A stretch of DNA of 15,575 nucleotides from Candidatus Zixiibacteriota bacterium (GTDB lineage: Bacteria; Zixibacteria; MSB-5A5; CAIYYT01), in assembly GCA_040235515.1 (NCBI GenBank), contig JBECKX010000058.1, forward strand, positions 1 to 15,575, in the 5' to 3' direction. The notes beneath the pieces are model-generated. The model did not search any database, was not told where the DNA came from, and saw nothing but the letters and a program-made list of their open reading frames with translations. A program made the translations under genes and the position numbers. Every line of letters starts with the position of its first letter. The first letter of the stretch is position 1. Of this stretch, positions 1,069 to 12,503 are shown one piece after another.

Positions 1069-1303
1069 GGTAATGACCATCCTTTCTCGAGTGGTAATAG
1101 ATTTGCTGTAATGAAGCGGACAAAAATGTTGTTTGTCAAGCTCTACGCCGCGCTGCCTGACAGAAAGTGACAGTCAAAGTAGCATGAATGTGATTGACGT
1201 GTGGATTGAGGGGTTGGGCTACGACGCTCTAGTGCGTTTGAGAATGCAGCGCGTAGCTGATCGCCATGAGTGAGTCATACTTACGCAGCCGGTATCCAAC
1301 ATG

Positions 1304-1345
1304 CTCCCCTCGCCCGCTGGAGGGAGAGGGGCCGGGGGTGAGGGT
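1304..1345. repeat. Simple REP-like palindrome (minus strand ACCCTCACCCCCGG-CCCCTCTCCC...GAGGGGAG; 'PSPPAPLPPAGEG' type)
   Basis: Hairpin CCCCTC..GAGGGG followed by CCGGGGGTGAGGGT. It has the same scaffold as the arms of the composite element. Confidence 0.8.
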
Positions 1346-1411
1346 GGATCAACCCTGCCATAAACTGGTGACCCACACGTTGCCGCATTAATCACATACC
1401 ACGGGTAAACC

Positions 1412-1489
1412 TGTAGGGGCACGCTGTGCGTGCCCGCTTCCGCTCATGGCGGAGCCGGGAGCTGGGGGCATGTGCAACATGCCCCTACA
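1412..1489. repeat. GTAG-family REP doublet (REPIN-like)
   Basis: TGTAG-GGGCACGC-tgt-GCGTGCCC and the inverted partner GGGCATGT-gca-ACATGCCC-CTACA. GTAG plus a hairpin is the canonical RAYT-associated REP layout. Confidence 0.8.
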
Positions 1490-1813
1490 AGGATAGGTGG
1501 CGTAGGTTTGGGACTGGGCCGGAGAGTCTCGAACCCACCACTCGCACCTCTGGCAAGCATGGCTATGGAACTGGATGTTACATCCCCAATCGGCGTGTAG
1601 CAACGCAAACCCCTCTTGAGAGGGGTCGGGCACGGATATCCCGCTCACGCGGGATTGAAGTGACCGGGGGTGTGTGGGAACTATCGTATCAACACCACCA
1701 CAAATTAGTGACCCAGATGTCGCTGCATTAATCGTAGGCCGCAGGCGAACCTATTGGGGCACACGCAACTTCCACAATCATACACCGTACAGTATACTTC
1801 AGGAGGTAATGCA

Positions 1814-3028: not shown

Positions 3029-3252
3029 ACACACCCCCGCCGTGATGTTTCCGCTGGCACGAAACCATCCCGTCGACCCCTCTCAAGAGGGGTTGGGCTA
3101 CGACGCTCTGAACCATGATGCACGAATCCGAACCACGAGTCACGCTGAGATTGATTCCCGAATATTCTCCGCGCGAGAACCGCTAACCCCTATCGAGAGG
3201 GGTCGGGCGCGGTATTCCCGCACATGCGGGAATGACGTGACCGGGGGTGTGT
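3029..3252. mobile_element. Gene-free 224-bp composite palindromic element (copy 1; MITE/REPIN-like)
   Basis: 11-bp TIR ACACACCCCCG/CGGGGGTGTGT, nodes at 3077-3092 and 3187-3202, and a 94-bp spacer. Collinear with 6520-6743 and the same length. Confidence 0.85.
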
Positions 3253-3370
3253 GTGGATTGGAGAATCTACCTAAAAATGGATAGTGACATGAATCGCTGC
3301 ATAAATCACAACCCAAACGTTCGATACGTTTGGATATCAATCAATATCGCAGGGGAAGCTACTCGAAAGC

Positions 3371-3396
3371 TGGATTCCCGCCTGCGCGGGAATGAC
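3371..3396. repeat. dRS3-like palindrome ATTCCC-N8-GGGAAT-GAC
   Basis: TGG-ATTCCC-GCCTGCGC-GGGAAT-GAC matches the Neisseria dRS3 core pattern. Confidence 0.75.
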
Positions 3397-3432
3397 GGTG
3401 AGGATTCTCCTCACCTATCGGCGTAGCAGAGA

Positions 3433-4434: not shown

Positions 4435-5457
4435 TTACAGTTTTACCAGATCGGTTTCAGGTCCCATCATGATCGTAAACTCGCGCAGCAGCTTCTTGTC
4501 GAATCCACCCTTCATGTTGTGCATGATCTTGAGGGCGGGGTAGGTATCGATTGCAGCCTGGTACACACGTTCCGTCGTTAGGGCATCGAAGACATCGGCG
4601 ATTGCCACGATCTTGCTGAAGGGGTGCTGATCCTTCTCGCTGGTGCCGAGCGGATAGCCCGAGCCGTCGAGGCGCTCATGGTGCTGTAGTACCGGATAGT
4701 ACGATTCCTTCTCGATCATGTCGGTTTCTTTGAGGATCTCACCGCCCCAGCCGGGGTGCTTCTTCATAATCTCAAATTCAGAACGATTGAGCGCAGTGCG
4801 CTTGGTAAGAATCCGTTCCGGGACCTTGCTCTTGCCGACATCGTGCAACAGCGCACCTGTACCCAGCGTCTTGAGCAGCTCCATATCGTTGATTTCGAGC
4901 TGTCGTGCCAGCGCCAGGGAGAAGGTGCAGACATTTACCGAGTGGGTGTAAGTATAGTAGTTAAAGGATGTAATCTTCATCAGGCTGACAAATGCTTCGC
5001 GCCCCTTGAGGATGTAGGAAATCGTGTTATCCACCATCTTCTGCGAGCGTTTGATATTCTCCGGATAGGTCGGATTGGCGAGGACATCCTTCACGAGAGC
5101 CTTGGAGGCTTCATAGAGGATACCGGCTTTCTTCTCTTCCGCCAGGGTCGGATCAGACATGATTTCCGGAAGGGCTTCCTCGACATAGCGCTGGTAAGCT
5201 TGTTTCGAATCAGATTTGATATAGATCTGGCTGACATTGTTTTCCTGCAGCTTGGAGAGCGAGGCAAGGGTAAATGGCAGCGCCGCCGAGCGATAGAGAA
5301 TCAGTTCGGTGCCGGTATAAATGTAGAGGTCGAAATTAAGAACCTTATCGACGATCAGCGAATCGACAGGGATTTGCAGATACGCCGGCTGTTGGTCTTC
5401 TTCACGCCTCTTAACCAGGTGATCCGAGAGTACAACCATCATCTGCTCTATCGACAA
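4435..5457 (-). CDS. HD-GYP domain c-di-GMP phosphodiesterase (start uncertain)
   Basis: HSVNV, LHDVGK, HHERLDGSGYP and IADVFDALT motifs. Confidence 0.93.
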   Translation of the reverse strand: MSIEQMMVVLSDHLVKRREEDQQPAYLQIPVDSLIVDKVLNFDLYIYTGTELILYRSAALPFTLASLSKLQENNVSQIYIKSDSKQAYQRYVEEALPEIMSDPTLAEEKKAGILYEASKALVKDVLANPTYPENIKRSQKMVDNTISYILKGREAFVSLMKITSFNYYTYTHSVNVCTFSLALARQLEINDMELLKTLGTGALLHDVGKSKVPERILTKRTALNRSEFEIMKKHPGWGGEILKETDMIEKESYYPVLQHHERLDGSGYPLGTSEKDQHPFSKIVAIADVFDALTTERVYQAAIDTYPALKIMHNMKGGFDKKLLREFTIMMGPETDLVKL

Positions 5458-5503
5458 AGAATGTAGTTTGCTATAGTTTTTGCTGAGACCTGCGCGGATA
5501 ACT

Positions 5504-5538
5504 AAACCGGCCCTGCGCAGATGGCACAGGGCCGGTTT
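5504..5538 (-). terminator. Rho-independent terminator (possibly bidirectional)
   Basis: AAACCGGCCCTG...CAGGGCCGGTTT stem, with T-runs on both strands. Confidence 0.75.
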
Positions 5539-5638
5539 TTACAGAAAGGGAGGGGGCCAAACTACCTTGAACTAATAACTTAGCAGCCAGGTCGTCTCGA
5601 CAGCGGTTCGGCGTTGCACCGCGACCGATCGTACGAGA

Positions 5639-6259
5639 CTAGCGCCCGTAACTTTTCACCAGCATCATCACCGATTGGAGGGAGGTGCTGATATTGGTGA
5701 GGGCTTTACTGTAGCGCTTGAGCAGTTCTGAGTACTGCCAGCGCATCGAGAAAGCCTTCTCAGGGAACTGGAAGGTATCAAGCAGTAGCTTGCGGTGGAT
5801 TTCGTCGATGTAACGAACTACATCGAACGGGTAATCAGTCAGGTCATCCTCGTTGGTATCGCCCTTGCTGAGGCGGTCGCGGTAGGCTTCGACCTTCTCG
5901 AGCACGACGGTACCGAAGCACCAGGGGGTCATCACGACGCCGAAGTTATTGGCTTCGGTGTAGAAGTCGTAAAGGGTGCGCAACAGAACTTCGAGCACTT
6001 TCTTGCGGGCTATGAGGTAGGCCCGCAGCTCGATCTGGTGGGGGGTAAGATCGGCGAGTTTGGCTTTGGTGTCCTTGAGATCTGCCAGCGCGCGCTGTTC
6101 GACCTGCTCCAGGAAACCATAGTAATCATCGAGATAGATTTTCACATTCTCACTGAGCGTGTAGATGAAGAAGCCGCCATCATCCTTCTTGACACGTGGT
6201 TCGACGCTCTTGGCGAAGCGCTCGGTCGGGAATCCTCGTTTCATTTCCTTGGCAATCAT
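5639..6259 (-). CDS. Hypothetical protein (206 aa, predicted helical)
   Basis: SD GGAAGGAG upstream of ATG 6259 and GC-rich third codon positions. The ORF-track extension to 6613 runs through repeats. Confidence 0.8.
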   Translation of the reverse strand: MIAKEMKRGFPTERFAKSVEPRVKKDDGGFFIYTLSENVKIYLDDYYGFLEQVEQRALADLKDTKAKLADLTPHQIELRAYLIARKKVLEVLLRTLYDFYTEANNFGVVMTPWCFGTVVLEKVEAYRDRLSKGDTNEDDLTDYPFDVVRYIDEIHRKLLLDTFQFPEKAFSMRWQYSELLKRYSKALTNISTSLQSVMMLVKSYGR

Positions 6260-6486
6260 CGTTGTGTCACTCCTTCCCTCTCTGAAGTTGCAAAGGAGTG
6301 AAATGCAACGGGTGTGCCGAAGTGAGTGGGTGTGCGTTTGAGAGCATGCTCCGGGACAGGTTGAGATGCGAGATGGTGTTAGGTCATGTGCATGAATTGA
6401 ACAGCGCGCGCAGGGGATTTCAGAGTGTGATCTTGGTTGCAGAACTGGGATGTTGAGGTATGCAAAGTGGCAGCGGAGGGACGGTT

Positions 6487-6511
6487 GGGTGCCCCACCGC
6501 TTTGCGGTGGG
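6487..6511. repeat. GGGTG-headed REP-like hairpin
   Basis: GGGTGC-CCCACCGC-ttt-GCGGTGGG, a perfect 8-bp stem located 8 bp before composite copy 2. Confidence 0.5.
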
Positions 6512-6519
6512 CTGTCGGG

Positions 6520-6743
6520 ACACACCCCCGCCGTGATGTTTCCGCTGGCGCGGAATTATCCCGTCGACCCCTCTCAAGAGGCGTTGGGCTGCGACGTAAC
6601 TACGATAGAGCAAAAGCTTGATAGAAATCGTCGCGATGAGATCGGTGCCTGAATAATAACAACGCGAGAAACGCTAACCCCTCTTGAGAGGGGTCGGGCG
6701 CGGAAATCCCGCGATAGCGGGAGAAACGTGACCGGGGGTGTGT
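6520..6743. mobile_element. 224-bp composite palindromic element (copy 2), abutting the DUF559 stop codon
   Basis: TIR, nodes 6568-6583 and 6678-6693, spacer 6584-6677 (94 bp). Its last base overlaps the TAA of the nuclease. Confidence 0.88.
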
Positions 6744-7117
6744 TAAACGCTTCTCCGATTCTCGATAATCCAACTAACTATCGCATCCACAACCCCTTGA
6801 ATGTTATCCATGACTTCCCGCTCTAGAAACCGAATGACAGTCAAACCTCGGCTTTGCAGCCAGGCCTCTCGATCTCGGTCGTAGTCGAGGCGATCATTGT
6901 GGGATGAGCCATCTACCTCAATGACCAACTCCAGTTCCTGGCAGATGAAATCCACGATAAATGTTCCGACCGGTCGTTGACGATGAAAATCGTAGCCCAT
7001 GATCTGTCGGCCCCTTAGGTATCTCCACAGTCTTTGCTCGGCAGGAGTGGGATTTTCCCGAAGCTTGCGTGCGCGTGATTCTGTGAGCCTCGAGTAAATG
7101 ATTATCCGCCTTTTCAT
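6743..7117 (-). CDS. DUF559 family endonuclease (Vsr-like PD-(D/E)XK fold)
   Basis: ARKLRENPTPAEQRLW, FHRQRP, FIVDF, LVIEVDGSSH, DRDREAWL and VIRF motifs are typical of DUF559. Confidence 0.93.
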   Translation of the reverse strand: MKRRIIIYSRLTESRARKLRENPTPAEQRLWRYLRGRQIMGYDFHRQRPVGTFIVDFICQELELVIEVDGSSHNDRLDYDRDREAWLQSRGLTVIRFLEREVMDNIQGVVDAIVSWIIENRRSV

Positions 7118-7123
7118 ATGGAC

Positions 7124-7152
7124 ATGATGTGATGAAGGAGCACTCGTGTCAA
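7124..7152 (-). promoter_or_regulatory. Putative sigma70 promoter of the DUF559 gene (leaderless)
   Basis: TTGACA (7152-7147), 17 nt, CATCAT (7129-7124), 6 nt, ATG. No SD present. Confidence 0.45.
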
Positions 7153-7172
7153 TCGCATTGAGTTAGCAAGTC

Positions 7173-7508
7173 ACACACCCCCGCCGTGATGTTTCCGCTG
7201 GCGCGAAATCATCCCGTCGACCCCTCTCGAGAGGGGTTGGGCTGCGACGTACCGGTGATAGAGCCGATGCTTGACAGATATTGTCGCGATGAGATCGGTG
7301 CCTGAATAATAACAACGCGAGAAACGCTAACCCCCCTCTCGAGCGGCGTTGGGCTGCGACGTAACTACGATAGAGCAAAAGCTTGATAGAAATCTTCGCG
7401 ATCAAATCGGTAATTGAATAGTGACAGCGCAAGAAACGCTAACCCCTCTTGAGAGGGGTCGGGCGCGGAACTTCCGCGATAGCGGGAGGAACGTGACCGG
7501 GGGTGTGT
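7173..7508. mobile_element. 336-bp composite palindromic element (copy 3) with an extra node+spacer unit
   Basis: TIR, three nodes (7221-7236, 7331-7348, 7443-7458) and two 94-bp spacers. Confidence 0.88.
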
Positions 7509-7530
7509 TCCCCGCATCCCCCCACTCTCC

Positions 7531-7559
7531 TTGCCCGGACGCATAAACCTCTCTATATT
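7531..7559 (+). promoter_or_regulatory. Putative sigma70 promoter for ridA-osmC
   Basis: TTGCCC-N17-TATATT, 43 nt upstream of the ATG. Confidence 0.45.
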
Positions 7560-7602
7560 CCTCCACAAATAGCACGAACGCTTATGCACGGAAGGAATAG
7601 CA

Positions 7603-7998
7603 ATGAGCAAGCAAGTCGTCTCGACCGATCATGCCCCGGCCGCCCTGGGACCATATTCACAGGCAATCATCCGTAAGAACTGCACCAACCTGGTATTCTG
7701 TTCCGGGCAGGTGCCGATCGACCCCGAAGTCGGCGGAATCAAAGCGGAGGGCATCACCGAACAAACTCACCAGGTGTTCAAGAACATCCAGGCGGTCCTC
7801 GCGGCCGCCGGCTCGAGTCTCGACAAAGTCGTCAAAGCCACCGTATTCCTGAAAGATATGAATCACTTTCAGGAGATGAACCAAGTTTACGGTGAGTACT
7901 TCAAGGGTGATTTCCCGGCTCGCTCGGCGATCCAGGTCGCGCGACTGCCGCTCGACGCCCTGGTGGAAATCGAAGTAATCGCGTACGTCGGAGAGTGA
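7603..7998 (+). CDS. ridA: RidA/YjgF/YER057c enamine-imine deaminase
   Basis: APAALGPYSQA, SGQVP, PARS and LVEIE motifs. Confidence 0.93.
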   Translation: MSKQVVSTDHAPAALGPYSQAIIRKNCTNLVFCSGQVPIDPEVGGIKAEGITEQTHQVFKNIQAVLAAAGSSLDKVVKATVFLKDMNHFQEMNQVYGEYFKGDFPARSAIQVARLPLDALVEIEVIAYVGE

Positions 7999-8775: not shown

Positions 8776-9909
8776 TTATTGATGTGTCTTCTCTGCAATC
8801 AGATCAACCTGACTTGACGGAAGCACGATCGGATTGTCATTGAGATACTCAATAGAGGCCTTGAGTATGCTCTCAATGTACTTTGGATTGTGAATTCCGT
8901 GAGAGCGATCTTCTTGGTAACTGACCCAGTTCCAAGCCGCACCGGCCTGTCTGCGGGTGATCGTTACAGATTTGAATTGATTTCCTGAGGCGCGGATTGA
9001 AGCAAGCAAAACGCCAAGAGAATCCGCCAGGTCATCATACTCACTCTGTGCACCCTCAACTTCTCCATCACCGTCAAAATCACTGAATGTTCCCGGCGTA
9101 TCGAAGGTGGAAAGCGGCGGGTCAGTCTCCGTATTACCGTGGCACAACTCGTTGTTGCACTGCCCTACAAGGGTGTACTCCGAACCATCATGAGCTTCAA
9201 AGCGCATGTTGAAGCTATGTCCTCCGATGTTGTATCCGTCATGAGCTTGAGGATTACCCATATGGCAGCCGATACAGGCTTCTCTCGGACCAGTAGCGTG
9301 CGTTGAACTTACCTTTACGTAACCAGGGAAGTCCTCAAACAGGTGGGTTCCCTGCAGAATATCAGCTTGCGGTCCGTGATGTGGGCCGAAACGCCCACTG
9401 ATTGACACGGTCTCAGTGTTAGGAACTGCACTCGCGAGAGGTGTTCTTACGTGATGGCAGTTTGCACAAAGGTTTGCATCGCCATGATCAAAAACCGTTC
9501 CATCAAGCAAAGTGAACGGCCCACCGGCGCGCACGGTCATATCTCCCCGCGCATGCGGTGCATGGCAAGTGAAGCAGTGGATCGCGCTGACTGTGCTGTA
9601 TGGCGGTTCAATTTCGCCAGTGCCAATAAAATCAAGGAAGCCCTGCTGGTCATGGCACATTGTGCAATCGGCTCCATCACCACGGTTGGTGTAGTCCACA
9701 CTCGTGCCGGATGCATGGAGCGAATTTCTCCACTCGCCTTCTGCCTGAAGCAGCGCGCCGTCAAGTGCATCCTCACCATGACATGCAAAGCAACCGGCTA
9801 ACGATTGATCGCCACTGGCCGCTTCATTGACGATCTTGCGTTCGCAACCCATCACGAACACCATTGCTGCGATCAGCAGCAATACCGCCAAAATTCTGAG
9901 TCCTTTCAT
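8776..9909 (-). CDS. Multiheme c-type cytochrome lipoprotein (5 CXXCH + 1 CX4CH), putative outer-surface component
   Basis: GGAGG SD, lipobox VMGC, hemes CFACH, CTMCH, CFTCH, CANCH, CIGCH and CNNELCH. C-terminal GAAWN...DRSHGIHNPKY helical domain. Confidence 0.9.
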   Translation of the reverse strand: MKGLRILAVLLLIAAMVFVMGCERKIVNEAASGDQSLAGCFACHGEDALDGALLQAEGEWRNSLHASGTSVDYTNRGDGADCTMCHDQQGFLDFIGTGEIEPPYSTVSAIHCFTCHAPHARGDMTVRAGGPFTLLDGTVFDHGDANLCANCHHVRTPLASAVPNTETVSISGRFGPHHGPQADILQGTHLFEDFPGYVKVSSTHATGPREACIGCHMGNPQAHDGYNIGGHSFNMRFEAHDGSEYTLVGQCNNELCHGNTETDPPLSTFDTPGTFSDFDGDGEVEGAQSEYDDLADSLGVLLASIRASGNQFKSVTITRRQAGAAWNWVSYQEDRSHGIHNPKYIESILKASIEYLNDNPIVLPSSQVDLIAEKTHQ

Positions 9910-9922
9910 CTTTAACCTCCTC

Positions 9923-11482
9923 TTAGAAGCTAAACGCATCAATTAAGTTCACTTCAACAATGTTGGCTGTATAGTACTGGTTGTCGAAATACAGCAGGTC
10001 ATCGAAATTGAAGGCGCTGTATTTCACCTCAAACTTGATATTTTCGTAAATCCGATAAACGATCGAACACTTCACGTTGAAATGCTCCACGTCGAGGTCC
10101 TCTTTGCTGCGGTAATACTGGGCACCGGCACTTAAGGTCACCTTGTCGCGATACTCGATGGTCGTGAAGTCCCCGTAAACGAGGTGATCATTGAATTCGA
10201 AGATTCCCTCGGCATTCTCGTACTTACCCATTCCGTAAGCATAACCGGCGGTGAGCCAGCCATACTTCTCAAGGGTAAGCGAGCCGTCGACACTGACGCG
10301 ATTGCGGTCGACCTTGCTGCCGATGTCTTCATTCTTGCGGATGCTGCCATCCCACTTGACGCGGAATGTGCCGACATCCGGTTTGCGGAAGCGAACCTGC
10401 CCGCTGAACCGCTGGCGCTTCTCCTCACCAACCAGCCGGACACCATCTTCGATGTCCTCGCTGCGCTGGCCATCCTCACCTCGGATTTCCCAGTAAGGAT
10501 GCGGCTTCACCCACGCCGAGACGTAGAAGGAATTGGCGCGGATTTCATCTTCAAAATCATCATTAACATCAAACTGATATCCGACCGTCGCCCCCCAAAG
10601 CCTCGGGTCGTTGTAGCTGACATAACCCGCATGACTCATGTTGTCGGTCGCGACAAAATCTGAGTCAGAGGCTGTGCGGTCGAGCATTCCGATATACTTC
10701 ACCGAGAAGTTGTGCGGCAGTTCGACCAAACCGCCACCCCAGCCGCGATTCGATCTGATTCCGAATCCGGTGGCATCTTCCTCGGTCACGTAGCGACGGA
10801 ATCCGCCCAGCACGTGCAGGAACTCGTAGTTCGGGATCGTGATGTAGGCATCACTGCGGAACTCGAACCGCTTCTGATCGCGCATTGGATCAAGGTCGTC
10901 GGTAAACTTGGCGCCGCGGTATTCGACTCGTACCATCGAATTCTCGTGGCTGAAGCTCACGCCCGCATTATAGAAATTGCGTTTGTAATCGACTTCGGTC
11001 GGCTCCGGTGTACTGGTCGGATTGAAGAGATCAACCGTGTTGCCGGTACGCTGCATGAATCCACCGCCACCATAAATCTCAATATACTCGATCGGCCGGA
11101 CCGAGAGCTGACCCTTGGTGGTCTGGCGGCGAGTGAACTTGTCGCCATCAAATGAATAGACGCGACGGAACTTATCATGCGACAGGCGCAGGTCGAAGAT
11201 GCCACGCTTGAAGAGTGAGGCATTGAGGTTGCGGTCGTTGCGCACGATGTTACGCAGGTCGGCACGCGCGACGATTCCGTTGTCAAAACGATAGCGGAAT
11301 CCCTCGAGAGAGAGCGCGGCGCCCTCGTAAACATTAAATGTCGAATGGTTCATCGACTGGTTGCCATCCTGGTCGAGGTAGGTGTAACCCACCTTGAGAT
11401 CACCGCTACCGCTGCCGGCGATAGCTGATCCGGTCAACAGCAACGCTGCCAGGGCAACCATGAATATCATAAGCTTCTTCAT
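9923..11482 (-). CDS. Outer-membrane beta-barrel porin, MtrB/PioB-like
   Basis: AGGAGG SD, Sec signal peptide, alternating amphipathic strands and terminal Phe. Sits between two multiheme cytochromes. Confidence 0.8.
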   Translation of the reverse strand: MKKLMIFMVALAALLLTGSAIAGSGSGDLKVGYTYLDQDGNQSMNHSTFNVYEGAALSLEGFRYRFDNGIVARADLRNIVRNDRNLNASLFKRGIFDLRLSHDKFRRVYSFDGDKFTRRQTTKGQLSVRPIEYIEIYGGGGFMQRTGNTVDLFNPTSTPEPTEVDYKRNFYNAGVSFSHENSMVRVEYRGAKFTDDLDPMRDQKRFEFRSDAYITIPNYEFLHVLGGFRRYVTEEDATGFGIRSNRGWGGGLVELPHNFSVKYIGMLDRTASDSDFVATDNMSHAGYVSYNDPRLWGATVGYQFDVNDDFEDEIRANSFYVSAWVKPHPYWEIRGEDGQRSEDIEDGVRLVGEEKRQRFSGQVRFRKPDVGTFRVKWDGSIRKNEDIGSKVDRNRVSVDGSLTLEKYGWLTAGYAYGMGKYENAEGIFEFNDHLVYGDFTTIEYRDKVTLSAGAQYYRSKEDLDVEHFNVKCSIVYRIYENIKFEVKYSAFNFDDLLYFDNQYYTANIVEVNLIDAFSF

Positions 11483-11492
11483 CACTTCCTCC

Positions 11493-12431
11493 TTAGCGAA
11501 CGTCGCCGTGACAGCCCGACTGATAACAGTTGGCGTAGAAGTTGACATTCAACATCGGATCGAGGAAGAGTGAGTTGTCATTCGATCCATGGATATCGGT
11601 ATGGCAGTTGACACAATCGACCTTGGTAGCCATACCGGAGTGTGCTGTCAGATGCCCCGGAGGAATGCCATGACACTGCATGCAAACTCCGTTACCGGGC
11701 TGGTTGAGCAGGCTTTCGTTCGGAGATCCGTGCGGGTTGTGGCACTCAACGCAACCGCCACCATCAACCAGGTGGTTGTATGTCACCGGGTGTTCAAACA
11801 GATGCGGTCCGGCATAATCGGAGTGGCACTCCTGGCAGGTCCAGTCGAATCCGGTTGCCAGCTGGTGGTCCTTGCGGTTGTCCTGCGAATGGCAATCGAG
11901 ACACTGAATATTGCCCGATTCCAGCGGATGGAACGAACGCTGCGCGAATTGCGCCTTAACGTTGGTGTGGCAACCCTGGCAAAGCTCGGTTTGATCTTCA
12001 ACCAGCAATCCCTCATGCAGGTTGTCGTGGATCTTGTGGCAGGTAAGACAGTCGACCTGCGAACGCGAATGCGGATCGGTTGAGACCATTCTCGCCTGGT
12101 GCGGGTTCATGTGGCAGCTGCCGCAAAGCTCCGCCTGGACCAGAAACGCCAGCGTGTCGGGCATGGTCGGATGAGACTCGGTCGGGTCTTCAAGGTGCTG
12201 CTCGAAATTCGTGTGGCACCCGATGCAGCTGACTTGCATTCCCTGCGTCATCCCCGATGTCAGCTCATGCTTGGTTCCGATGAGGCCCTCCGCGACGTCG
12301 TCGTGGCAGTCAAGACACGCTGCTCCATCTCCCTGCGCCAGAGCCGGCACAGCAAAACAGAGCAGAAATGCGACTATCAACGACAGCCGTGTGAGAATCC
12401 TCCTCATCTCACTATTTATCTTATTGTTCAT
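11493..12431 (-). CDS. MtrA/DmsE-family decaheme cytochrome c with extra C-terminal CX4CH
   Basis: Signal peptide ending ALA, ten CXXCH motifs, FEHP/CHNPHGS/IHGSN family motifs, and a terminal CYQSGCH. Confidence 0.9.
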   Translation of the reverse strand: MNNKINSEMRRILTRLSLIVAFLLCFAVPALAQGDGAACLDCHDDVAEGLIGTKHELTSGMTQGMQVSCIGCHTNFEQHLEDPTESHPTMPDTLAFLVQAELCGSCHMNPHQARMVSTDPHSRSQVDCLTCHKIHDNLHEGLLVEDQTELCQGCHTNVKAQFAQRSFHPLESGNIQCLDCHSQDNRKDHQLATGFDWTCQECHSDYAGPHLFEHPVTYNHLVDGGGCVECHNPHGSPNESLLNQPGNGVCMQCHGIPPGHLTAHSGMATKVDCVNCHTDIHGSNDNSLFLDPMLNVNFYANCYQSGCHGDVR

Positions 12432-12503
12432 ACCAACCTCTTCTATGAGCAAAAAGTCCATTTTTCGGTCAAAAGATAAACTCGCACGTTAACATCGACT
12501 TTC

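Follow-up and report, generated by a model that had tools for sequence, protein, structure and literature searches.

In bacterial tandem repeats, crossover between misaligned units gives a left/right mosaic together with its reciprocal, and pop-out circles and tandem donors leave an equal footprint. The intrastrand triplex repeats BoxC, PIT and TMECO were described by Holder et al. 2015 (PMC4666352), whose text sets a loop limit of 1-6 nt and stems of 6-15 nt and whose finder permits GGC and TAT triplets. The main text of PMC4666352 contains the word 'nuclease' 0 times, and no enzyme is named in it for the spread of BoxC-class repeats. PMC3116915 describes REPINs and REPs arranged in tandem arrays, and circle and rolling models have been published for BIME turnover by TnpA-REP (PMC3333891). 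A mobilome study, in its account of eight E. coli REP regions, reports no circles from them (10.1101/2024.07.17.603846).

The window analysed here is a whole stretch of 15,575 nt from a draft genome assembly of 218 contigs. It carries copies of a repeat of about 65 nt, composed of a ACACACCCC tail, a variable hairpin and a 16-nt palindromic node that forms the inner end. Allowing up to two mismatches, 64 node matches were found in the genome (51 exact, nine with one mismatch and four with two), and a tail lies 31-41 nt away in 54 of the 60 nodes with at most one mismatch. The repeats are mostly singlets; copies 1-3 are head-to-head doublets. Each is laid out as a pyrimidine stem, a purine stem and a G/T third strand, the order of a class II purine-motif triplex, with 7-nt stems and GGC/TAT triplets.

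The resemblance to BoxC, PIT and TMECO as described in PMC4666352 lies in the class II order, the intergenic location, the many copies, the inverted pairs and the link to local instability, the triplex being predicted here from layout. Unlike those repeats as they are described there, this one has a stem of 7 bp around a 2-nt loop, its third strand is G/T, and a 31-41-nt hairpin forms its second loop. The BoxC/TMECO loop limit was accordingly exceeded, with a second loop of 31-41 nt in 54 of 54 tailed nodes, and the stem sequence departs from the TMECO consensus. Versions of the repeat in Bacteroidetes keep a 3-nt loop. True BoxC-type repeats are also present in this genome (40 relaxed matches), and a search of the window against Rfam gave 0 matches at the gathering score.

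Palindromic singlets, inverted doublets about 110 nt apart and tandem arrays are also features of the REP/BIME/REPIN elements with their RAYT REPtrons, as are, in the descriptions given in PMC3333891 and PMC3116915, a nuclease gene between variable arrays and diversification followed by local amplification, with circles proposed as a model. In contrast to REPs and REPtrons, the gene bracketed here encodes a DUF559 protein and not a Y1/HUH transposase, the repeat ends in ACACACCCC without GTAG, and the 54 copies are mostly singlets. A RAYT was rejected as partner, as the single weak Y1_Tnp match of the genome (L073, a 3.2-kb locus) is without the node. On contigs C172, C138, C182, C121, C42, C16 and C192 of genome G000, the node repeats have been copied along with flanking sequence, in many cases with a GTAG REP or a BoxC-type neighbour as well, in the manner of BIME-like modules.

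The original prediction concerned copy 3, in which two segments shared with copy 2, termed X and Y, were read as the insert left by a circle that had been cut or copied out of copy 2 and joined node to node. The identities behind that reading are exactly as described: X is 48 nt long (6630-6677 = 7283-7330) and Y 46 nt (6584-6629 = 7349-7394). The two diverged halves that enclose them (7237-7282 and 7395-7442) do add up to 94 nt, and the switch lies at spacer column 46/47. Taken from left to right, copy 3 has the build node–A–node'–B–node, a two-unit array (Table 1). The DUF559 gene lies between copies 2 and 3 with one tail facing it on each side; the tail of the copy 2 right repeat touches its stop codon (6743-6745), which overlaps the last base of the repeat. 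Compared with the other spacers, that of copy 1 is identical at 50-55 of 94 positions.

Table 1 Repeats, spacers and gene of the locus, in window coordinates
Feature	Position	Strand	Description
Decayed 'copy 0'	1208..1675	+	Half node at 1208, right repeat 1610-1675; BoxC-type repeat and GTAG REP pair nested between
Copy 1	3029..3252	+	Older head-to-head doublet of the same build; 94-nt spacer, outgroup
Copy 2 left repeat	6520..6583	+	ACACACCCC tail, hairpin, node 6568-6583 (GGCG variant)
Copy 2 spacer	6584..6677	+	Left half of B (6584-6629) joined to right half of A (6630-6677); single junction 6629/6630
Copy 2 right repeat	6678..6743	-	Node 6678-6693, hairpin, tail; doubles as left end of the DUF559 cassette
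DUF559 gene	6743..7117	-	124 aa, presumed Vsr-like endonuclease fold; PF04480 E 1.3e-34, PDB 3HRL E 4.8e-21
Copy 3 left repeat	7173..7236	+	Tail, hairpin, node 7221-7236; right end of the DUF559 cassette
Unit A spacer	7237..7330	+	94 nt (one half originally read as diverged, and X); whole in run X2 with 3 SNPs
Node'	7331..7348	+	Bare decayed internal node without tail or hairpin; two extra C, A>C, GGCG
Unit B spacer	7349..7442	+	94 nt (Y, and the other half originally read as diverged); whole in run X1
Copy 3 right repeat	7443..7508	-	Node 7443-7458, hairpin, tail

Units A and B are co-linear and identical at 74 of 94 positions (79%), leaving 20 diagnostic sites. The copy 2 spacer follows B over columns 1-46 and A over columns 47-94, with the B allele at the first ten sites and the A allele at the last ten, a perfect sorting that is not due to chance (P about 1e-5). 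Among copy 2, A and B, only the copy 2 spacer is a two-parent mosaic; a second parent improves neither A nor B. The maximal exact matches are 6580-6629 = 7345-7394 (50 nt) and 6630-6681 = 7283-7334 (52 nt), and the 102 nt of the copy 2 interior show zero differences from copy 3. The copied tract in copy 2 thus has maximal limits of 6580-6681, inside both nodes, and a minimum of 6582-6666; its ends are maximal limits only, because they are set by the mutations in node'.

The junction has zero homology, since columns 46 and 47 are both diagnostic, and copy 2 has the G/C allele at each of the two adjacent mismatches that flank it. This differs from general tandem-repeat exchange in that the switch falls between two adjacent mismatches in mid-spacer. 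Both properties are mildly unusual, a junction without homology being available at 6 of 67 intervals (P about 0.09) and a position within 1 nt of the spacer midpoint having P about 0.045. Six two-donor mosaics were found in the genome, with copy 2 as the only zero-overlap case. The two breakpoints that had been counted separately reduce to one observation, because any single crossover, in either direction, yields a mosaic along with the reciprocal product. Against the donor unit, the order X–node–Y was confirmed to be permuted, and the same order is given by a tandem donor or by the reverse direction. Recent sequence exchange between copies 2 and 3 also stands, and needs a donor with the right half before the left half, either a tandem array or a loop.

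The right half of unit A is closer to copy 1 than that of unit B (36 vs 31 of 48), which makes X an old sequence. Folded as DNA, and taken without shuffle controls, the spacers gave weak and dissimilar structures of -4.7 to -10 kcal/mol, with no structural feature in common at column 46/47. A CRISPR-like array was ruled out because the spacers are homologous to each other. Metagenome scans, from which near-identical records may be omitted, gave 0 matches with a 21-mer from the spacer start and 0 with the hybrid-node pattern. When 285 genomes of the phylum were scanned with a two-node pattern, five matched, G000 included (L074-L080 were judged from the matched letters only), and no second doublet pair with related spacers was found among the 285. 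The two-node pattern with another spacing occurs in 3 of 21 family genomes.

The node between X and Y had been described as carrying two extra C and one substitution. Node' is in fact at least four edits (two extra C and two substitutions) from any right-then-left hybrid of the copy 2 nodes, from which its central CG cannot be derived; it is three edits from a hybrid that uses the copy 3 left node. Set against zero edits in the 94 nt of X and Y, four in the 18 nt of node' is a clear excess (Fisher p = 0.0005; p = 0.004 if three edits are counted), and the same 4/18 matches the divergence of A from B (20/94, p = 1.0). Node' likely predates the copying, because it carries at least four edits and X and Y carry none. 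Judged by these edit counts, node' looks about as old as the split of A from B, and the X and Y identities look recent. This comparison does not support the direction from copy 2 into copy 3, nor a join node of the same age as the X and Y copies that could have been built from the two nodes of the donor. A loop popped out between A and B would read precisely X–node'–Y, and by sequence a circle released from copy 3 would look the same as a tandem donor or an unequal exchange.

Searching for three exact nodes spaced 80-110 nt from one another returned 19 loci, which are array-selected and hence do not represent a frequency. DUF559 was found within the fetched DNA of seven of them. Bare, tail-less nodes make up 4 of the 104 nodes in these loci and are all internal. 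In L029, which lies beside a DUF559 gene, and in L033, the two being from other genomes, the order is left node, spacer, bare hybrid node, related spacer and right node, co-linear and unpermuted. Their bare nodes are flanked on the left as a right node would be and on the right as a left node would be, the build of copy 3. The other two loci with a bare node are L026, muddled by an N gap, and L041, in which the node is decayed. A viral scan gave two loci (L081 and L082), two node pairs on one viral contig.

Multi-node arrays with scattered breakpoints, which the original prediction had named as the pattern that would tell against it, are partly borne out. In the Formosa array L032, from a complete genome, allowing a second parent gained 31, against 20.9 +/- 2.9 when the columns were shuffled 300 times (p = 0.003). 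Incompatibility was seen in 74 of the 105 informative pairs of sites, and the breakpoints are scattered from columns 22-33 to 68-75 of 91. Twelve of its 15 units were used, two terminal units and one duplicate being left out. The array is AT-rich, so that homoplasy can mimic mosaics, and its units are tailed, unlike node'. Mosaic calls in L025, L036 and L070 were disregarded as noise from aligning dissimilar units.

Three runs of one study carry parts of the stretch and were all compared over 6300-7700, at a depth of 2-5; run X1, which is possibly the source sample, has 0.42 of the sampled words at a depth of about 3. No RNA dataset with the stretch was listed. Record 1 of X1 (257 nt) spans 6580-6836 with ten differences, and the ten are precisely the B alleles. 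Over its first 126 nt it matches 7345-7470 letter for letter, and it then continues through the copy 2 right repeat into DUF559; it begins exactly at 6580 and continues with B alleles, with no break at 6629. Its phase, B at copy 2, is unproven because the 39 nt common to both right repeats exceed k=31. Neither the Y2|X2 junction nor the empty target Y3|X3 was found in any record of the three runs, a weak absence at this depth and with X1 maybe the source.

Record 8 of run X2 spans 7221-7351, preceded by 11 loose letters that equal 7322-7332, and has five differences, of which three are listed. On the assumption that it starts and ends with the same 30 letters, the remaining two are 7232 and 7235, and its length of 142 is 112 + 30. 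We infer that the record is a node'–A–node' loop, as obtained with k=31, the left end following from the 11 loose letters and the count of five differences. Its node'-to-A junction is absent from the window, because no more than 16 nt are common to the units in that register. The loop is unit A and not the unit of copy 2, and contigs at k=31 cannot separate a circle from node'–A–node'. The depth of the record is 2.6, with 2.6-3.8 for the other records of X2, which a chromosomal array would explain more readily than a free circle of 112 nt. As stated in their description, Logan contigs are k=31 graph paths from which isolated non-circular contigs of <150 bp are dropped (10.1101/2024.07.30.605881), so record 8 is either linked or circular. 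The order of the A and B units is likely to vary among related strains, as judged from these contigs.

The DUF559 gene scores 118.8 bits against the PF04480 profile (cut-off 20.6), and its 124-aa frame is intact. We take its fold to be Vsr-like and not that of an HUH joining enzyme; the title of PDB 3HRL says only 'endonuclease-like'. Thirty DUF559 loci (L043-L072) were collected from 17 of 21 family genomes; the loci are kin, and some are near-duplicates. All 30 are bracketed by inverted repeats of triplex layout with the third strand facing the gene. The flanks hold the node described here within 300 nt in 10/30, a BoxC-type hairpin in 11/30, a third type of the same layout in 8/30 and a node variant in 1/30, the last nine of the loci having been typed by eye. 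Judged by titles and abstract openings of the papers listed, with most subscription journals outside the search, DUF559 with flanking repeats goes untreated. Neither the hairpin-expanded repeat of triplex layout nor its tie to DUF559 came up in the literature searched; mosaic units in repeat arrays are ordinary.

Copy 3 is a two-unit tandem array, probably an old one, and the copy 2 spacer is an exact B/A mosaic that was probably copied in not long ago, through unequal exchange at the locus or through gene conversion. A duplication of node and spacer would have come about by slippage, or by unequal crossing-over of a right node with a left one, and would have left a bare hybrid node, after which A, B and node' would have drifted by about 21%. 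Arrays may then have expanded and been reordered in the population, as in the node'-to-A junction of run X2. A crossover of B with a downstream or sister A would have given the B/A unit in copy 2; alternatively, two-ended gap repair could have done so with its left end in the B register and its right end in the A register. Repair of heteroduplex mismatches is GC-biased, and a switch without homology could arise from such repair choosing G/C at the adjacent mismatches (T:G to C:G and G:A to G:C). The host repeat, REP/BIME-like and of triplex layout, brackets DUF559 genes, and putative nicking of it by DUF559 may drive turnover. A need for the free circle is unsupported, as bare hybrid nodes of the kind that tandem duplication of node and spacer gives are seen in L029 and L033, and the related-strain contigs order whole A and B units otherwise. 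Nodes as cut/join sites are likewise unsupported, bare hybrid nodes being what such a duplication is expected to leave. The claim of a circle entering copy 3 mostly dissolves into array turnover of the type modelled for BIMEs since 2011.

It is unlikely, if conceivable, that DUF559 cuts or nicks the palindromic nodes and that the copy 2 spacer was lost from node to node and refilled from copy 3, whether by two-ended gap repair or from a loop or circle of 112 nt. This would be the circle of the original prediction turned to the opposite direction. The identical tract 6580-6681 would suit such an event, running from inside the left node to inside the right one, although, as noted, mutations in node' allow these ends to be given only as maxima. 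A loop popped out from between A and B and record 8 of X2, a 112-nt loop through node', would supply the intermediate, yet the depth of that record is that of chromosomal records and a chromosomal node'–A–node' yields an equal loop. The bracketing of all 30 family DUF559 loci by inverted repeats of this layout also counts in favour; against stands the fold, which we presume to be Vsr-like and not that of a joining enzyme. Circles are a published model of BIME turnover by TnpA-REP (PMC3333891), but the mobilome study, in its part on eight E. coli REP regions, is without them (10.1101/2024.07.17.603846).

An artefact of assembly or consensus is quite unlikely. The true copy 2 would then be B, or a collapsed B–node'–A, with Y2|X2 arising from co-assembly, read correction or polishing. 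The draft state of the assembly, the absence of Y2|X2 from every record and the B alleles that record 1 of X1 carries from 6580 past 6629 are all in keeping with this, and the collapse of a two-unit array with anchors at either end would produce a homology-free switch close to the middle. For a de Bruijn assembler to cross a zero-homology junction, however, k-mers spanning it must be present in the reads, and PCR chimeras form only where there is 3' homology. Such junctions also form no genome-wide pattern (one of six candidates), and at the coverage of X1 the missing junction weighs little. Very unlikely is the original model, in which the copy 2 unit circularised node to node and entered the middle of a single-unit copy 3 by one crossover. 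It gives the observed order, the shared X, Y and GGCG variant and a mid-spacer junction without homology, and it agrees with X being an old sequence. The model nevertheless requires four edits in an 18-nt join while 94 nt were copied error-free (p = 0.0005), and a homology-free insertion into a target that is 79% identical. The supposedly new junction in A is present in run X2 with three further SNPs lying on both sides of it, the empty target is missing from the low-depth run records, and in L029 and L033 bare hybrid nodes occur with co-linear, unpermuted spacers. Record 1 of X1, though unphased, hints at strains that have A and B whole and lack Y2|X2.

A speculative suggestion, of rather low probability, is that DUF559 is the REPtron-like enzyme of the triplex-layout repeats, nicking nodes and setting free, from arrays like that in copy 3, node-to-node loops some 112 nt long that then replace the spacers of neighbours. 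If this were true, the node-bounded B/A mosaic of copy 2, with its zero-homology switch, would be the footprint, and the 112-nt loop record of X2 the intermediate, of a non-HUH amplification, and BoxC-class repeats would gain their missing mobiliser. The locus offers a compact natural substrate, with an intact DUF559 gene amid repeats that are now exchanging sequence and a clean 102-nt tract with maximal limits inside both nodes.

In genomes G001 (L016), G012 (L017) and G007 (L019), geneA and the genes for HD-GYP, RidA and OsmC are contiguous and co-oriented, without repeat or DUF559 (compared with 4436-6492 of the window). In the window the geneA-HD-GYP segment is inverted, and homology to G001 stops 28 nt before copy 2; the repeats are located at a breakpoint of the inversion. 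As to an orthologous empty site, these three genomes are without the cassette but are too distant for alignment of intergenic DNA. Comparison of 1153-1675 with L016 (13100-13232) shows a whole node repeat upstream of recA in G001, where the window has only a half node; 23 nt of this half node (1208-1230) are identical to copy 1. The BoxC-type repeat nested in the decayed doublet 'copy 0' lies at 1307-1344 and the GTAG REP pair at 1412-1489. A local duplication of 75 nt links 1348-1422 with 1688-1762 (73% identity). The palindrome at 3369-3397, of the ATTCCC...GGGAAT type, resembles the hairpins within the right repeats and is presumably dRS3-like. A multi-haem cytochrome, a 519-aa putative porin without Pfam match and a paired-CXXCH cytochrome are encoded at 8776-12461, likely a porin-cytochrome cluster. 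Upstream of the HD-GYP gene, 5639-6259 holds a conserved 206-aa gene without Pfam match, which has DNA matches in most family genomes and weaker ones across the class.
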